DNA of 29,397 bases, taken from positions 1-29,397 of the forward strand of contig CAZDTP010000052.1 of the NCBI GenBank assembly GCA_964508365.1, written 5' to 3'. The position numbers and the translations under genes are program-made. Below the pieces are notes generated by a model. It worked only from the letters and a program-made list of their open reading frames with translations. It made no database searches and had not been told where the DNA came from. This document shows positions 579-15,118 of this stretch, piece by piece. The first letter of the stretch is position 1; every line of letters begins with the position of its first letter. This stretch comes from an uncultured archaeon (GTDB lineage: Archaea > Asgardarchaeota > Lokiarchaeia > Sigyniarchaeales > SOKP01).

Positions 579-2456
579 TTGAACACTGAACGAGTCGTCG
601 AAGAAGCACGAGCGTATGCAGAAGAAATAATAGAGACGGTTCGAGAGCCTCTCCTTGTTCTTAATGAGGATCTTCGGGTGATCTCTGCGAATAAAAGTTT
701 CTACGATACGTTTCAAGTATCCCCAGAGGAGTCAGAGAAGGAACTTATTTACGATTTGGGAAACCAACAGTGGGACATCCCCAAGCTTCGTGAGTTGCTA
801 GAAGACATTCTCCCCAAGAACGCCAAATTCGAAGCCTACGAGGTGGAGCACGACTTCGAGACCATCGGAAAGCGAATAATGGTTCTCAATGCCCGAAAAA
901 TATATAGAGAGACTAATAATTCGCAAATAATCCTCCTTGCCATCGAAGACATTACCGAGCGCAGGAAGGCTGAACGAGTCGTCGAAGAAGCACGAGCGTA
1001 TGCAGAAGAAATAATAGAGACGGTTCGAGAGCCTCTCCTTGTTCTTAATGAGGATCTTCGGGTGATCTCTGCGAATAAAAGTTTCTACGATACGTTTCAA
1101 GTATCCCCAGAGGAGTCAGAGAAGGAACTTATTTACGATTTGGGAAACCAACAGTGGGACATCCCCAAGCTTCGTGAGTTGCTAGAAGACATTCTCCCCA
1201 AGAACGCCAAATTCGAAGCCTACGAGGTGGAGCACGACTTCGAGACCATCGGAAAGCGAATAATGGTTCTCAATGCCCGAAAAATATATAGAGAGACTAA
1301 TAATTCGCAAATGATCCTCCTTGCCATCGAAGACATTACCGACCGTAGGAAAGCAGAGAAAGAAAAAGAACAATTGCAATCAATTTTATCTAGTCAAAAG
1401 GATCCTGTTTTTGTCATATTTGGAGATTATACAATTGCTTTTATGAACCAATCAGCATATGAAATATTTGGAGCTGAGATTGCTGGGAAAAAATGCCACA
1501 ATATAATTAAAGGATCGGATTACCCGTGTGATCATTGTCCAATAAAAGCTATTACGGAATCTAATATCTTAGAAGTTCGGTTTGAACAATGCGTTATACT
1601 GCCCTATTCAGAGGAAACTAAATTTTTTGACGTGAAGGCTACACATATTGAAAATTATGACGGAAAGCCCGCAATCGTAGAATTATCAAGAGATATCACC
1701 CATCTTAGAATGGCAGAGAATGATTTAAAAAAATCTGAAAGTATGCTTCGTGAATCTCTTACTAAGACAAATTTTTATAAAGATTTACTCACTCACGATA
1801 TGAATAACATCTTACAAGGTATTTTATCAGGCGCGCAGTTTAGTGAACTAATTCATAATGATCCAAATCAACTTGAAGAACTACGATCTAGTATAAGAAT
1901 AATAAGAGAACAAGTCATTAGGGGAACAAATTTAATTCGTAATATTCGCAAGATTTCTCAACTTGAAGAACACGAAATACAGTTTAAAAAGGTTGAGATT
2001 TGTAATATTTTAAAAAATTCAATTTCAAATGTAAAAAACACTTACCAAGATAAAAATATAAACATACAAGTCGATTCTATCGATAAAAAGCTTTATGTTC
2101 AAATCGGAGAATTTTTAGAAGATGTGTTTGAAAACATCTTGATTAATGCAATAAGACATAATAAAAACCCATTGGTTAAAATCACCATTAGGATTTCCAA
2201 GTATAAAAAAAATAGCACAAATTATTTTAAAATAGAATTTCTGGATAACGGTGAAGGAATTGATGACAATCGAAAAAAGATTATCTTTCATAGAGGGAAC
2301 GCTAAAAAAGGAAGCGTTCCTGGAATGGGTTTAGGGCTGTCTCTTGTGAATGTTATTGTTGAAAGTTATAATGGAGAAATCTGGGTTGAAGATCGTATAA
2401 AAGGAGATTACACTAAAGGGAGTAATTTTGTTCTTTTAATACCAGAGGTGATCTAA
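579..2456 (+). CDS. PAS-domain sensor histidine kinase (three PAS domains plus HisKA/HATPase)
   Basis: H-box LLTHDMNNIL, N-box NILINAIRHN, G1 DNGEGI and G2 GMGLGLSLV. Two near-identical PAS domains (IIETVREPLLVL...) precede a Cys-containing PAS. Confidence 0.93.
   Translation: MNTERVVEEARAYAEEIIETVREPLLVLNEDLRVISANKSFYDTFQVSPEESEKELIYDLGNQQWDIPKLRELLEDILPKNAKFEAYEVEHDFETIGKRIMVLNARKIYRETNNSQIILLAIEDITERRKAERVVEEARAYAEEIIETVREPLLVLNEDLRVISANKSFYDTFQVSPEESEKELIYDLGNQQWDIPKLRELLEDILPKNAKFEAYEVEHDFETIGKRIMVLNARKIYRETNNSQMILLAIEDITDRRKAEKEKEQLQSILSSQKDPVFVIFGDYTIAFMNQSAYEIFGAEIAGKKCHNIIKGSDYPCDHCPIKAITESNILEVRFEQCVILPYSEETKFFDVKATHIENYDGKPAIVELSRDITHLRMAENDLKKSESMLRESLTKTNFYKDLLTHDMNNILQGILSGAQFSELIHNDPNQLEELRSSIRIIREQVIRGTNLIRNIRKISQLEEHEIQFKKVEICNILKNSISNVKNTYQDKNINIQVDSIDKKLYVQIGEFLEDVFENILINAIRHNKNPLVKITIRISKYKKNSTNYFKIEFLDNGEGIDDNRKKIIFHRGNAKKGSVPGMGLGLSLVNVIVESYNGEIWVEDRIKGDYTKGSNFVLLIPEVI
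586..1353 (+). repeat. Tandem duplication of a 384-bp (128-codon) PAS module
   Basis: 586-969 matches 970-1353. By eye there are only 4 mismatches (929/1313, 959/1343, 962/1346, 968/1352). Confidence 0.97.
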
Positions 2457-3394: not shown

Positions 3395-4492
3395 TTATAT
3401 TTTTTTATATTTTTTTATTTTCAAATCTTTTTCAAAAAAGCCGGATGATATTAAATTCTTTTTTTGTTCATCAAAATGAGCATAAAGTTCAATAGGCTCA
3501 ATCTTTTTTACTGGGTTAATCATATTTTTTCTATAATTAAGTAATCGCTTGCGAGTTAGATAAATCGAGTAATCGGATATATCACATCCTATCCACCTTC
3601 TATTTAATTTATCGGCAGCTATTATAGTAGTTCCAGAGCCACAAAAAAAATCTGCTACTAAATCTCCTTTATTACTACCTATTTTGATTACTCTTTCAAG
3701 CAAATCGTGGTGTTTTTGAGTAGGAAAACCTGTCCATTCTTTTGATGCCGGTTGTAAACATGGAATTTTCCATACATCGTCCAGCTTTTTGTCTGTCACA
3801 GTTCGATAAATTACATGACCATTTCTATCTTTAGCATTTTTTAAAACTCCGTTTACCATTTCACGCTTAAGTTGTTTAATTGGCTTATTGCGGGGGATTC
3901 GCTGTTCATTAAAAGTAAAATCCGATGACTTAGAATACACTAAAATATTATCATGTGCTCGAGGGAGCGTTTTTTTTCCCGCAGAATACTTATTATAGTA
4001 ATACCAAATAATCTCATTTATGAATCGATTCTTTCCAAAAATCTCATCTAAAAGAAGTTTAACATAATGACTAGCATGCCAATCTAGATGAATGAAAATT
4101 AAACCTTTTTTTGACAAGAGCTTTTTAAAAATTGAAATTCTATCAAAAAGCATTTGTAAGTATGAGTCTATATCTTTATTCCAGTAATCAAAGTAAGCAA
4201 CTGAGTCATATCTATTATTTCCTTCTGAAATGTTGATAGAATAATTTGATCCGGAGAAAAAGGGGGGATCTATATAAATTAAATCAATAGTTTCTTCGAA
4301 ATTATTTAACAAATAATACGCTACTTCTAAATTATCCCCCCAATATAAAAGATTTTTCCAGATTTGTTCAGAAGTTTCTTCACTATTGGAAAATTCTAAA
4401 TCAATTCTTTTATAATAATCTCGATATGTTGTTTTTAATTTAGAAATATTTTTTAAGAAATCCTTTTTATTTTCCCAGATTAGCTTTACCAT
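3395..4492 (-). CDS. Beta-class N6-adenine/N4-cytosine DNA methyltransferase (Mod-like), orphan
   Basis: Motif IV DLIYIDPPF precedes motif I DFFCGSGTT; also WGDNL, FPTQK and RRWIGCDIS. Confidence 0.93.
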   Translation of the reverse strand: MVKLIWENKKDFLKNISKLKTTYRDYYKRIDLEFSNSEETSEQIWKNLLYWGDNLEVAYYLLNNFEETIDLIYIDPPFFSGSNYSINISEGNNRYDSVAYFDYWNKDIDSYLQMLFDRISIFKKLLSKKGLIFIHLDWHASHYVKLLLDEIFGKNRFINEIIWYYYNKYSAGKKTLPRAHDNILVYSKSSDFTFNEQRIPRNKPIKQLKREMVNGVLKNAKDRNGHVIYRTVTDKKLDDVWKIPCLQPASKEWTGFPTQKHHDLLERVIKIGSNKGDLVADFFCGSGTTIIAADKLNRRWIGCDISDYSIYLTRKRLLNYRKNMINPVKKIEPIELYAHFDEQKKNLISSGFFEKDLKIKKYKKI

Positions 4493-4522: not shown

Positions 4523-5803
4523 TTAAAGAATTGATAGATTAAATATAGTTATTGTAATAATTGTCATTGAAATCAGGATACTTATGGTAATAATAATATA
4601 AAAGATTAGATGAATGACATACACTTTTTTGTTCTTCTTCTTATTTAAAGCTCTTGTAGAATAAAATAATTTGTTCAATATTGCCGCTGATAATCCGATT
4701 GTTAACATCAATAACGCGTTTCCTTCGTTAATTAAACTTTTATAAAACGCAGTAGCAACGAAAAGAGATGAAGCACCCCCGGAAAGTAACCCGATTCCAA
4801 ATACAATTAGATAATATGCGATGATATTTAATTCAAAAAAACTTAACACGATTGTTAAAACTAATCCAATTGAGTATGTTCCCGCAAATATTAGTGCGCT
4901 CTTAATTGAGAGAGGATTTTTGATCTTTTCTAACATTAAATGAGTTTCTTTTTTTCTTAGTATTAAAAATGAACCAATTAATCCTATAATCGATGTAACT
5001 AGAATAGGATAAAGAGCATAACCTAATAAGGTAGGAGTAATCATTAACACAATGATCATCCTAATCAGCATAGTTTGAATAACAAGCCAAACTGATGAGG
5101 AAGAGGCACCAGCTTCAGCTAATTCAACGGTTGTAGCCTCGCTGTGAGCAAAACCTCCTAAAAATGAAATATAATATAGATTTTTTTCAGTTGTGCTTTT
5201 TAATAAAAAATAACTAAAATATTTTACAGTTAAAATTACGATGAATATTATAATTATTGATTTAACAACAATACCGAAAACTTGGAGATTATCTGGAATT
5301 AGGATATAAAGTAAAACTACGATTGCAATAAACTCAACGGTCCCAGTCCATTCAATTTCCTTTAATTTTCTTATTTTATAAAACTGCTTTTTTGTAGATA
5401 AGATAATCAAAAATATAACAGAAATGGCAATAGCAAGATATTCATTATAATAACACATTATACCAACAATCATCGCTAATATCATTGATAGAGTAGTAGT
5501 ATACCCAGGATCTTTTTCCCGAAATAACCTATATATAGATCCAATCAACAAAAAAATGATCATTCCGCCAAAAAACAATACAATTAGAATAAATCCTTCA
5601 GATACAGGTAAAAATGTATTATTTAAAATTATTAAAGAGGTCGAAATCATTGAAAAAAAGATGTGATCTCGAGCACCATATTGGGCTGCTACTCTAGTGC
5701 GCTCTATTCCTATAACGAAGCCACAAAAAAACGACACTATGATTTTAATGAATAAACCGTAAAATTCTGCTAATAATATCATTTGTGATAACAATAAATT
5801 CAC
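4523..5803 (-). CDS. MgtC/SapB-family membrane protein with DUF4010-like C-terminal region
   Basis: N-terminal GFVIGIER..YGARDH and GYTTT motifs, GGFAHSEATT, and about 12 hydrophobic segments. Confidence 0.8.
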   Translation of the reverse strand: MNLLLSQMILLAEFYGLFIKIIVSFFCGFVIGIERTRVAAQYGARDHIFFSMISTSLIILNNTFLPVSEGFILIVLFFGGMIIFLLIGSIYRLFREKDPGYTTTLSMILAMIVGIMCYYNEYLAIAISVIFLIILSTKKQFYKIRKLKEIEWTGTVEFIAIVVLLYILIPDNLQVFGIVVKSIIIIFIVILTVKYFSYFLLKSTTEKNLYYISFLGGFAHSEATTVELAEAGASSSSVWLVIQTMLIRMIIVLMITPTLLGYALYPILVTSIIGLIGSFLILRKKETHLMLEKIKNPLSIKSALIFAGTYSIGLVLTIVLSFFELNIIAYYLIVFGIGLLSGGASSLFVATAFYKSLINEGNALLMLTIGLSAAILNKLFYSTRALNKKKNKKVYVIHLIFYIIITISILISMTIITITIFNLSIL

Positions 5804-5931: not shown

Positions 5932-6645
5932 TTACTCTAAATTATTTGCTAAGATATCTTCTAATTCTTTATCAGAAAGGAATCCCTTATGAGCCATCGT
6001 TTCCCTAATTTTTTCAATAACTTGAGGTGCTCCTTTTGATTCTTCAATGAAATCCTCTAAAGAAGTTAGTTTAAGTCTAACTGCTTCAATTTCTTTATTC
6101 TTCGCTTCAATTTCATTCTTAGCAGTGATTATTTCGTTTTCCTTCCTATCCAACTGTCCAGTTAACTCGTCTTTTAAGCTTTCGATCTCAACATACTTAT
6201 CAGAAATTGTCTGTTGAAGATCTTTCTTAACGCTTTCTAGCTCTCTTTCTTTTTGATCGTGTTCTTCTTTTAGAGAACCTACTTTTGGTTCTAATTCCTT
6301 CAGTTTTTCCTTTGTTTCATTATATTTCATCTCAAAGTCAGATTTGTCATTTCTTAATGAATCTACTTCCGTACTTATTTTATTTCTCTCTTCTGACACC
6401 GATGTTAACTCTGCTTTAGTTGAATTTAGATCTTGAGTAGTTCCGTTGAGCTTTTTTTCACTCGCAGCTAAATTCTCTTTAGTTTCGCTCAACTCTTTTG
6501 ATACGGACTCTAACTTCTTTTCTTTTTGCTTTAATTGCTGCTCTAAATCTTTAACTTTTGCTCTAAGGTCTAATAAAAATCGTCCATCTATTTTTTGGGA
6601 CTTTTCCGGGTTCATTTCCGCTTTTTGCCAGTCAATATTAGTAAT
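5932..6645 (-). CDS. Coiled-coil protein with SHOCT-like C-terminus, paralog 1 (probable ATT start at 6645; first ATG at 6615)
   Basis: Heptad-rich K/E body ending in HKGFLSDKELEDI. The segment ITNIDWQKAE upstream of the ATG is conserved with paralog 2. SD GGTGT lies 7 nt before the ATT. Confidence 0.85.
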   Translation of the reverse strand: MTNIDWQKAEMNPEKSQKIDGRFLLDLRAKVKDLEQQLKQKEKKLESVSKELSETKENLAASEKKLNGTTQDLNSTKAELTSVSEERNKISTEVDSLRNDKSDFEMKYNETKEKLKELEPKVGSLKEEHDQKERELESVKKDLQQTISDKYVEIESLKDELTGQLDRKENEIITAKNEIEAKNKEIEAVRLKLTSLEDFIEESKGAPQVIEKIRETMAHKGFLSDKELEDILANNLE

Positions 6646-6811
6646 ATTTCTTACACCTTCATTTATTTTCTTTTTATATCATTATTTTATATTATTAATT
6701 TTATGTTGTACAATATATAATTTTTTCAAATTATTTATTAACTCGTATGATATTTGCTTATGTAAGATTTTTTAAAATTCAAAGTTGTTGCTTAAGGCAA
6801 ACTCATATAAT

Positions 6812-7474
6812 CTAATCAAATTCTTTGAAAATATCTTCCAATTCCTTATCGGAAAGAAACCCTTTATGAACCATCATTTCTTTAATTCGTTCTAAAACTT
6901 TTGGTGTGGATCTTACTTCTGAAAGATTTGCTTCAAGCAATTTGATTTTATCTATAAATTCATCAGTTTCTTTTTGATTTGTTTTAATTACCTCATTTAG
7001 ATTATCTATCTCCTTTTTTCTTTTTTCTAAATCGTTCTTATAGTTTTCTATAGTCTTTTCCTTGAATTTAATTGTTTGTTCCATTTCACTTGCTTTTTTT
7101 GTCGTTAATTTTAATTCACTCTTCAAATTACTAATGTTATCGTTTGCTTCAGTAAGTTTTGCTTTGATTTCTTCAAGCTTTGGCTTTAATCGAGTTAATT
7201 CAATATCAGTATTTAGTTTATTTTCAGAAACATTATCCAAATTCTTCTTTGCAGATGAGAATTTCTCACTTATCTTAACAAGACTTTTCTCTCTTCCGGT
7301 TAACTTATTTTGAGTTTCCTTTAATTTTTCCTTGGTCTTCTGGAGTTTTTCCTTATTTTTATTTAAATCTCTTTCCAATTCGTTAATTTTAGCTTGTAAA
7401 TCTAATAAAACCCTTCCTTCTACTTTTTGAGCCTTTTCTGGGGCTAACTCCGCGCGTTCCCAATTAATAGTAAT
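6812..7474 (-). CDS. Coiled-coil protein with SHOCT-like C-terminus, paralog 2 (probable ATT start at 7474)
   Basis: The frame is open from TAA(7480-7478): ITINWERAELAPEKAQKVEGRVLLDLQAKINELE, with no ATG/GTG/TTG before 7378. It ends in HKGFLSDKELEDI, and SD GGTGA lies 7 nt before the ATT. Confidence 0.85.
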   Translation of the reverse strand: MTINWERAELAPEKAQKVEGRVLLDLQAKINELERDLNKNKEKLQKTKEKLKETQNKLTGREKSLVKISEKFSSAKKNLDNVSENKLNTDIELTRLKPKLEEIKAKLTEANDNISNLKSELKLTTKKASEMEQTIKFKEKTIENYKNDLEKRKKEIDNLNEVIKTNQKETDEFIDKIKLLEANLSEVRSTPKVLERIKEMMVHKGFLSDKELEDIFKEFD

Positions 7475-7714
7475 TTTTTACTCACCCTTTTGACTTATTT
7501 GTAAAAGTTTAAAACGTTTTTAGATTACCTAATTAAATTCTCAATTATTGTTTAGATTTTCTCTATATTGTTTTATCGCTATATAAATTAATTCTTCTTC
7601 TGCTATATTAAACTTTACGAAGCATTAATTTTTTATAATGCTAATTTATTTTATTGAAAATAGCTTTGGTTTATTTGAAAAGGCAAGATAATTTTATTTA
7701 ATGGAATTCTAATC

Positions 7715-10164: not shown

Positions 10165-10689
10165 ATGAGCAAAAGTGAGAATAAAATTGATAAGGAATTA
10201 TTTCTCGAGAAATTTGAAAAATTGTCGCTAAAAATTGAACAGTTAACGCTTGAAATCTCAAAAATGAAAGAAAAACTAGATAAAACCAACAAAATTAACA
10301 GGGGCTTCGGATTAAAGGCAATAAGAAATTCCAAACCTTTAACATTTGCAAGAGAGATTTATGGGCTAAGGAGCCCTACAAAACAATACATCCTATCTAT
10401 TAGAACTGTTTCGGAAGTATGGAAAGGAAGAAAAAATGATTTTTTAGTTGCTATTAGACAGCAAGAAAATGAAACGCATATGGACCTTAAAGCGCTAGGA
10501 ATTAGAATCCCAATTGATGACATGAAAAATCTTACAACTTTGGCAAAAGAGGTCCTTTCAATGCTCTATATTTCTAGTGAATTAAAGGGTATTGAAGTTA
10601 CTGAAATTTTAAGAGAAATTGTAACTCAAATCAATAAAGATGGACAATCCATGGTTCGAGAAATAAAGCAAAATATGGAACTTCAATAA
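10165..10689 (+). CDS. Hypothetical protein: N-terminal coiled coil plus possible PC4-like beta domain
   Basis: The ATG at 10165 follows GGTGGT. The segment TVSEVWKGRKNDFLVAIRQ...KALGIRIPIDDMKNL resembles the PC4 pattern. Confidence 0.7.
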   Translation: MSKSENKIDKELFLEKFEKLSLKIEQLTLEISKMKEKLDKTNKINRGFGLKAIRNSKPLTFAREIYGLRSPTKQYILSIRTVSEVWKGRKNDFLVAIRQQENETHMDLKALGIRIPIDDMKNLTTLAKEVLSMLYISSELKGIEVTEILREIVTQINKDGQSMVREIKQNMELQ

Positions 10690-14266: not shown

Positions 14267-15118
14267 ATGGATATAAATAAGGCATGTATTATAGGTGCTG
14301 GAGTAATGGGTTCTGGAATCGCACAACTTGTAGCTATGCATGGATATAATGTAACTCTAGTAGATATAAGTGAAGAGATACTAAAACAGGCTAAAATAAA
14401 AATTGAGAAAAATCTAGAAAGGTTTTTTGTGGTAAAAAATAAAATCTCAAAAGAAGAATCAGAAAAGATCCTTAACAATATTGCTATAAACACTAATAGG
14501 GATGAAGCCATAAAAGAGGTACAGATTATTATTGAGGCGGTATTTGAAGATATGGCTTTAAAACAAGATTTACTATCTGATTTGGATAGAAAATGTAAAG
14601 AAGATGTCATTATTGCTTCAAATACCTCTTCTTTAAGTATTACAGATATGGCAAGTAAAGCGAGAAATCAAGAAAGAATCGTTGGTATTCATTTCTTTAA
14701 TCCTGCCCCAGTAATGAAATTGATAGAATTAATAAAAGGAAAAAACACCTCTGATGAAATTCTTGAAATATCTAATAAATTTGCTCTTAGTTTAAATAAA
14801 ACTGTAGTAACTGTTAACGACTCCCCAGGTTTTATTACCACTAGACTAATTTACGTATTATGTAATGAAGCAATAAACATGAAGCAAGAAGGAATAGCTA
14901 GTACAGAAGATATAGATACAGCGGTTAAATTAGCATTTAATTTTCCAATGGGTCCATTGGAACTCTCTGATTTGGTAGGAAATGACATATATCTTCACAT
15001 TGGAGAATATCTCACAGAAAAATTAGGGGAAAACTATAATCCAAGTCCACTGTTAAAAAAAATGGTGAAAGAAAACCTTATCGGTCGAAAAACCAAACGC
15101 GGTTTTTATACTTACTAA
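14267..15118 (+). CDS. hbd: 3-hydroxyacyl-CoA (3-hydroxybutyryl-CoA) dehydrogenase
   Basis: GAGVMGSGIA, IEAVFE, ASNTSSLSI, GIHFFNPAPVM, PMGPLELSDLVG and GRKTKRGFY. Confidence 0.93.
   Translation: MDINKACIIGAGVMGSGIAQLVAMHGYNVTLVDISEEILKQAKIKIEKNLERFFVVKNKISKEESEKILNNIAINTNRDEAIKEVQIIIEAVFEDMALKQDLLSDLDRKCKEDVIIASNTSSLSITDMASKARNQERIVGIHFFNPAPVMKLIELIKGKNTSDEILEISNKFALSLNKTVVTVNDSPGFITTRLIYVLCNEAINMKQEGIASTEDIDTAVKLAFNFPMGPLELSDLVGNDIYLHIGEYLTEKLGENYNPSPLLKKMVKENLIGRKTKRGFYTY

Follow-up and report, generated by a model that had tools for sequence, protein, structure and literature searches.

Two neighbouring genes on a contig from an uncultured Loki-type archaeon (Sigyniarchaeales; assembly GCA_964508365.1, contig CAZDTP010000052.1) are predicted to begin at ATT (AUU in the message) instead of ATG, GTG or TTG. 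The window, meaning the whole 29,397-nucleotide (nt) stretch that was analysed, is contig C52 of a metagenome-assembled draft genome (G000) of 4.07 Mb in 149 contigs, with 32% GC. We consider it highly probable that both genes, here called paralogs 1 and 2, are intact and translated from AUU. Their ATT initiation is one instance of near-cognate start use throughout the genus: to judge from the sequences, AUU, AUA, AUC and ACG, and in some cases GUU, function as start codons in its members when a strong Shine–Dalgarno (SD) site precedes them. Public homologues of the pair are labelled 'Promethearchaeota archaeon', i.e. a Loki-type Asgard archaeon, and the nearest DNA matches to the window come from salt-marsh metagenomes. 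The features of the two genes are as follows.

6812–7474, minus strand: paralog 2 coding sequence read from ATT, 220 amino acids plus stop, predicted head-rod-tail coiled-coil protein, with 220-amino-acid orthologs in many genomes
7472–7474, minus strand: paralog 2 putative ATT (AUU) start codon, 8 nt after GGTG and one codon after an in-frame TAA
7481–7487, minus strand: paralog 2 SD-like GGGTGAG, complementary to the 16S rRNA 3′ end
7478–7480, minus strand: paralog 2 in-frame TAA, closing the frame upstream
7376–7378, minus strand: paralog 2 first canonical in-frame start, TTG, 32 codons after ATT
5932–6645, minus strand: paralog 1 coding sequence read from ATT, 237 amino acids plus stop
6643–6645, minus strand: paralog 1 putative ATT (AUU) start codon, 8 nt after GGTG, its place also indicated by the codons of orthologs
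6653–6659, minus strand: paralog 1 SD-like AAGGTGT, with GGTG at 6657–6654
6679–6681, minus strand: paralog 1 in-frame TGA upstream, with no ATG, GTG or TTG from there to ATT
6613–6615, minus strand: paralog 1 first canonical start, ATG, 10 codons after ATT

The leader of paralog 2 reads, in order, GGTGAG (7486–7481), TAA (7480–7478), AAA, ATT (7474–7472) and ACT, and ATT in paralog 1 (6645–6643) is likewise followed by ACT. A sequence-only reading of the window had already pointed to both codons. Its account of paralog 2, an in-frame TAA and then AAA-ATT-ACT with no ATG, GTG or TTG for 32 codons, is correct in every coordinate, and the ATT-ACT that it placed at 6645 in paralog 1, ahead of a conserved segment common to both genes, is borne out by sequence and alignment. 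ATT stands 8 nt from GGTG in both paralogs, which is 7 nt from GGTGA or GGTGT. The same reading had compared this 7-nt spacing with that of the canonical starts at 14267 and 17259, both of which indeed read AGTGA-N7-ATG. The 16S rRNA ends in ...GGATCACCTCCT, a tail complementary to GGTGA, which identifies GGTGA as a true SD core. The two ATT codons thus lie at the distance from a genuine SD, 7–8 nt after GGTG, at which canonical start codons peak in this genome. In both genes a stop codon closes the frame upstream, and the first ATG, GTG or TTG comes only after essential sequence. Read from ATT, the two proteins can be aligned from residue 3–4 onwards with 37% identity (E = 8e-37).

Comparison of ortholog 5′ ends, a check that the sequence-only reading had named, gave the clearest evidence. 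We tabulated 80 homologous genes from 37 of 40 related genomes by the codon preceding the conserved X-[ST]-[IV]-[DNE]-W head. The genus contributes 66 genes from 25 genomes, and other families of the order contribute 14 genes from 12 genomes. The aligned codon is ATT in 29 genes, ATG in 22, TTG in 14, GTG in 8, GTT in 4, ATA in 2 and ACG in 1, and no codon unlike a start was found at this position among the 80 homologues. Within the genus the counts are ATT 29, TTG 13, ATG 11, GTG 7, GTT 4 and ATA 2; in the other families they are ATG 11, with GTG, TTG and ACG once each. A few homologues have shifted N-termini, with GTG, ATG or TTG one or two codons off. The codon is always 7–8 nt past GGTG, AGTG or CGTG, and often 1–6 codons past an in-frame stop. 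With few exceptions, homologue matches start from query residue 3, upstream of which the frame stays open for just a few codons. Where a public full-length gene call has a canonical start, its first residues are MSIDW, MGIDW, MSVNW or MSLDW. The position is therefore that of a start codon: the aligned codon is always of the start type, it is ATG in 11 of the 14 homologues from other families, and the N-termini of public calls are of the MSIDW type. ATG, GTG or TTG occupies it in 44 of the 80 genes, and the N-terminus encoded there is M-S-I-D-W. The sequence-only reading had held that ATG at these positions in orthologs would count against its proposal. Some orthologs do carry ATG there, and this marks the position as a start codon and so does not refute ATT initiation.

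The same layout recurs in 25 genomes of the genus, beyond what chance would produce. Among 21 orthologs of paralog 1 the aligned codon is ATT in 15, TTG in 5 and ATG in 1, and orthologs of paralog 2 have ATT, ATA, ATG, GTT or TTG. The genome holds a third paralog (contig C55:7896-8828, plus strand; L003:1489-2421), which reads TGA-GAA-AAA-ATT-TCT-GTA-GAC-TGG and shares the head motif; 29 codons separate its ATT from the first canonical start, a GTG, and its C-terminus is a CPxCG...CxxCG zinc ribbon in place of the KGFLSD tail. All three paralogs of the genome thus have ATT at the start position. GTT (AGGTGGGCGGAA-GTT) occurs there in the paralog 2 orthologs of four genomes (G009, G005, G021 and G017; L016, L026, L028 and L029), where close relatives have ATA or ATG. 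With two mismatches to ATG, GTT may initiate even more weakly, or these genes may start from the ATA that follows two codons later.

Standard gene finders place the starts of the two paralogs at the canonical codons ATG 6615 and TTG 7378, and public calls for orthologs of the ATT type are shortened to 146–200 amino acids. If these calls were right, the similarity upstream would reflect a conserved 5′ untranslated region or DNA element. The block in question is, however, the best-conserved part of the family in the alignment, and it evolves as coding sequence: third positions are the most variable, roughly half the codon differences leave the amino acid unchanged, and replacements are conservative. 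Ahead of the first canonical start, residues P13, K15, G21, L24 and L25 are invariant in the family and W6, R22, D26, R28 and K30 nearly so. Relatives with ATG, GTG or TTG at the ATT position encode the same block as their N-terminus. The first canonical start itself wanders among orthologs, from 5 to 116 codons past the conserved Trp, and ATG 6615 encodes an internal, unconserved Met, opposite which paralog 2 has Leu and paralog 3 has Glu. No SD precedes ATG 6615 or TTG 7378 in the window sequence, and a paralog 2 product begun at TTG 7378 would lose the whole conserved head. We therefore regard initiation at these two codons as very improbable.

A draft in 149 contigs assembled from a metagenome might also contain sequencing or assembly errors, or the genes might be decaying pseudogenes that have lost their ATG. 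Contigs from independent Logan assemblies of other salt-marsh samples carry the same ATT codons with 0 differences (X4 over 6538–6688; X5 over 6610–6760 and 7258–7514), which excludes an assembly error and upholds the sequence-only argument against a sequencing error. The comparison was made with assembled contigs, and gaps in the cover by X4, X5 and X20 carry no meaning. ATT is also found in many genomes at 50–92% protein identity, in intact frames under purifying selection, and some 50 further genes show the pattern, as described below. Error or decay can thus be given a negligible probability. A contig from a sediment metatranscriptome, X20 (6521–6671), spans the 5′ part of paralog 1 with its ATT and SD; its end lies 26 nt beyond the ATT on the upstream side. 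It differs from the window at one unlocated position, and a contig of this kind cannot show transcription, strand, transcript start or end, expression level or translation.

A survey of the genome for SD-led ATT starts, likewise suggested by the sequence-only reading, placed the pair in a wider pattern. Each codon was scored by its distance after GGTG; at least 100 open codons were required, with an in-frame stop within 20 codons upstream, no canonical start between the two, and none in the next 10 codons. Canonical codons peak 7–8 nt after GGTG (34 + 24 = 58 sites), and ATT, ATA, ATC and ACG peak at the same 7–8 nt (25 + 25 = 50 sites, versus about 5 per position at 13–20 nt; Fisher odds ratio 6.7, p = 7e-13). 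The other 54 codons show no peak after GGTG across the whole genome. By codon, the peak sites comprise ATG 30, ATT 22, TTG 18, ATA 13, GTG 10, ACG 8, ATC 7 and CTG 0, and CTG was found at 0 of 174 sites. Near-cognate codons thus account for about 46% of strict GGTG-led starts of open reading frames in this genome. Many of the frames that they lead encode recognizable N-terminal motifs ahead of the first canonical start. Examples are uS4 (at ATC), uS11-like, HisA-like, GcvT-like and MvhD-like proteins, P-loop and Rossmann N-termini, and response regulators. Housekeeping genes are thus among them, and so is the gene for the fidelity factor aIF1, which normally rejects such codons. In three genomes of the genus, ATC stands 7 nt past GGTGA as the start of the uS4 gene (IGDPRRLKKKFKKPK...): on contig C92 of the present genome (plus strand, position 10278), and in the samples of G012 and G008 (L166-L197).

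The habit is concentrated in the genus. Small samples of three other genomes of the genus (800 kb) gave 7 near-cognate and 10 canonical sites. The first 1.2 Mb (L098-L157) of a complete genome from another family of the same order (G032, 31% GC) gave 3 near-cognate versus 22 canonical sites. The contrast between G000 and G032 is significant (p = 0.0014), and the three samples of the genus taken alone give p = 0.06 against G032. Since G032 has few near-cognate starts at equal GC content, AT-richness alone does not explain the habit. The canonical sites differ as well: ATG is found at 19 of 22 in G032, and TTG or GTG at 28 of 58 in G000, which indicates that the genus is relaxed at the first codon position too.

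In bacteria, infC, the gene for IF3, starts at AUU and is under translational autocontrol (Butler et al. 1987, as related in PMC4705826). The sequence-only reading had seen deliberate tuning of this kind in the pair. AUU would then have been selected in these particular genes because it keeps expression down, sets the ratio of the two products or makes expression responsive to the level of the initiation factor aIF1. Several observations are in line with this. ATT is kept in 15 of the 21 paralog 1 orthologs, including all eight of the closest clade, and in all three paralogs of the genome. At the start position of the family the ratio of ATT to ATA plus ATC is 29:2; the sense Ile codon two positions on is ATT in 26 cases, ATA in 35 and ATC in 9. 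The gene for aIF1 is itself ATT-led (see below), so that any AUU gene could in principle be sensitive to this factor. Against this, on a quick family tree of 81 rows, built from the sequence past the start codon, the start codon must have changed no fewer than 22 times, and it crossed from one class to the other (canonical or near-cognate) no fewer than 13 times. Sister taxa on this tree differ at the start codon (ATA/ATG, ATT/ATG), and such repeated switching implies weak constraint on which start-type codon is used. Near-cognate starts are common across the genome, ribosomal proteins included, and the genome-wide ratio of ATT, ATA and ATC at starts (22:13:7) mirrors Ile codon usage. The excess of ATT in the family may reflect shared ancestry, the genomes being related. 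The predicted products are coiled-coil proteins and not a fidelity factor, and autoregulation of the infC type finds no footing in the pair. Hence the claim of AUU initiation in both paralogs stands, upheld by ortholog 5′ ends, by ATG, GTG and TTG in relatives and by SD spacing, whereas deliberate infC-like tuning is not specifically supported. A lineage-wide relaxation of start-codon choice fits a habit of genome and genus breadth better; gene-specific tuning of the pair is possible but unsupported, and we think it unlikely.

The gene for aIF1 (SUI1; contig C25, L068:1414-1767) has no ATG, GTG or TTG before its zinc knuckle, and its frame opens after a TGA. Within the genus, 19 of 19 copies keep an ATT six codons ahead of the first Cys; elsewhere in the order, other families have TTG, GTG, ATG or ATA at this N-terminus. 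The only initiator-type anticodon arm in the genome, a candidate recognized by motif and by eye, is GGGCTCATAACCC with a normal CAU anticodon. The candidate initiator tRNA (contig C25, ~38500-38650, minus strand) has an acceptor stem of the A1:U72 type, three G:C pairs in the anticodon stem and an intron of about 65 nt that does not interrupt the anticodon loop. Even with introns allowed, ARAGORN missed this tRNA, and it detected only 14–30 tRNAs in the genome overall.

Given a normal CAU anticodon, the simplest mechanism would be mismatch-tolerant pairing of the initiator Met-tRNA on an SD-anchored 30S subunit. In this scheme, pairing of a GGUG(A)-type SD with the 16S 3′ end would anchor the subunit and bring the codon 7–8 nt downstream into the P site, where the ordinary initiator tRNA could accept AUU despite a third-position mismatch. 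Met would most likely be the first residue of the proteins, and is probably cleaved off ahead of the following Thr. Weakened or retuned proofreading by aIF1 is the presumed cause of the habit, and the ATT start of aIF1 itself suggests, by analogy, that proofreading may be set to a permissive level. We hypothesize that the genus is in a natural state of relaxed stringency, in which AUU, AUA, AUC and ACG are routine for many SD-led genes, an AUU-led aIF1 may set the level through feedback like that of infC or eIF1, and the coiled-coil genes are ordinary aIF1-sensitive members; we give this full scheme an even chance.

Alternatively, AUU could be read by an unusual decoder, either an initiator tRNA with a modified C34 or a tRNA charged with Ile. 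Animal mitochondria have AUN starts, as given in codon tables, and f5C34 allows mitochondrial tRNA-Met to read AUA. The use of AUN and ACG in the genus resembles the mitochondrial AUN starts, and a tRNA gene cannot reveal modifications. Only the standard CAU arm of the initiator type was found, however, and a change at position 34 alone would leave the ACG and GTT starts unexplained, so that we hold this route to be distinctly improbable.

Several points weigh against AUU initiation in the pair, or against the mechanism proposed for it. Both N-termini are placed at ATT by comparison of sequences. The conserved Ile codon (ATT or ATA) two positions past the start is also near-cognate and a conceivable start, but it lies 14 nt from the SD. 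Some orthologs of paralog 1 have an in-frame GTG within the SD itself. Related genomes are non-independent observations. The counts from the genome scan depend on its criteria (GGTG core, open reading frame of at least 100 codons, bounding stop) and concern SD-led genes only. Finally, the aIF1 of Sulfolobus rejects AUU in vitro (PMC4705826), and the mechanism therefore requires a lineage-specific relaxation, which is postulated here.

Two other ways of translating the conserved head were considered and rejected. Leaderless initiation at a GTA or GTG in the SD leaves the fixed SD spacing and the ATG-bearing homologues unexplained. Stop-codon reassignment or readthrough from upstream meets further in-frame stops, no upstream ATG and a divergent upstream gene.

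The products of the family are predicted to be head-rod-tail coiled-coil proteins of about 220–240 amino acids, with a conserved head of about 30 residues, a long helix and a short tail. The two proteins have the head IDW..AE..PEK.QKVEGR.LLDLR.K, the long helix and the tail AP.V.E.I.E.M.HKGFLSDKEL that mark the family. An AlphaFold2 (AF2) model (pLDDT 88.8) has a short N-terminal helix (6–11), a continuous helix (21–220) and a C-terminal helix (225–236). As seen here, the family appears restricted to Loki-type archaea (Promethearchaeota). Pfam searches with both proteins, and with the head and the tails alone, returned only sub-threshold coiled-coil matches; the weak matches included Rod_CreS and Filament, all under curated cut-offs. 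SHOCT had no Pfam match in the tails searched alone (E ≤ 10). The ESM Atlas gave unnamed or crescentin-like clusters at low recognition, and no functional lead. Like crescentin and intermediate-filament-like proteins, those of this family are predicted to have a single helix of about 200 residues between conserved ends; unlike them, they have head and tail motifs specific to Loki-type archaea. An assignment to SMC proteins, which would call for ATPase head domains, following the JGI label 'chromosome segregation ATPase' on homologues, was rejected on account of the sub-threshold Pfam matches and a model that is one long helix.

Genes near the pair encode an N6/N4 DNA methylase (3395–4492, minus strand), an MgtC + DUF4010 membrane protein (4523–5803, minus strand) and a multi-PAS histidine kinase (579–2456, plus strand). 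No functional link to the coiled-coil pair was evident from the neighbouring genes (DNA methylase, MgtC/DUF4010, DUF72 and histidine kinase).

Known systems provide partial parallels. In Escherichia coli, pcnB also has an AUU start. The likeness to infC is that AUU serves as the start of a gene with an SD and is decoded by the ordinary initiator tRNA (the role of the tRNA being presumed here), and that the gene of a fidelity factor is itself AUU-led, here apparently that of aIF1. Unlike bacterial AUU, which occurs in no more than one or two genes of a genome, near-cognate starts here reach about 46% of strict GGTG-led starts and fall in unrelated genes; the factor is aIF1, of the eIF1 family, and not IF3, and its autoregulation is here only an analogy. 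Belinky et al. found a single AUG-to-AUU switch among 61,358 reconstructed prokaryotic starts, using annotated starts (PMC5622118).

Archaea have been described, from Sulfolobus and Pyrococcus systems, as using AUG, GUG and UUG (PMC4705826, PMC6237735). The present case is likely to share with these systems SD pre-positioning followed by a complex of aIF1, aIF1A and aIF2 with initiator tRNA, and to differ in that the genus appears to accept AUU, AUA, AUC and ACG routinely. Ribosome profiling in Haloferax mentions near-cognate codons among putative alternative sites, without further treatment (PMC7261190). No published description of ATT or ATA starts in Asgard archaea was found in the literature searched. 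Near-cognate initiation is also established in eukaryotes, where eIF1 autoregulates through its own poor context (PMC4705826, PMC11775629). Eukaryotic and mitochondrial near-cognate starts resemble the present ones in the single-mismatch set AUU, AUA, AUC, ACG, GUG and UUG and in the weak start of the fidelity factor's own gene. Unlike the eukaryotic ones, those described here appear to be anchored by an SD, without scanning or Kozak context, and CUG, the best near-cognate codon in eukaryotes, is unused.

Standard gene finders shorten or miss genes with ATT, ATA, ATC or ACG starts, and in this way they cut the coiled-coil proteins short and deprive the public homologues of the family of their conserved head. 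Mis-called starts of this kind distort Asgard proteomes, ortholog tables and searches for eukaryotic signature proteins. In bacteria, near-cognate initiation is known from rare exceptions, and in eukaryotes it is known to occur at low levels. A genus with relaxed start-codon choice, if this is true, would constitute a natural experiment on how start-codon stringency is set and how it evolved.

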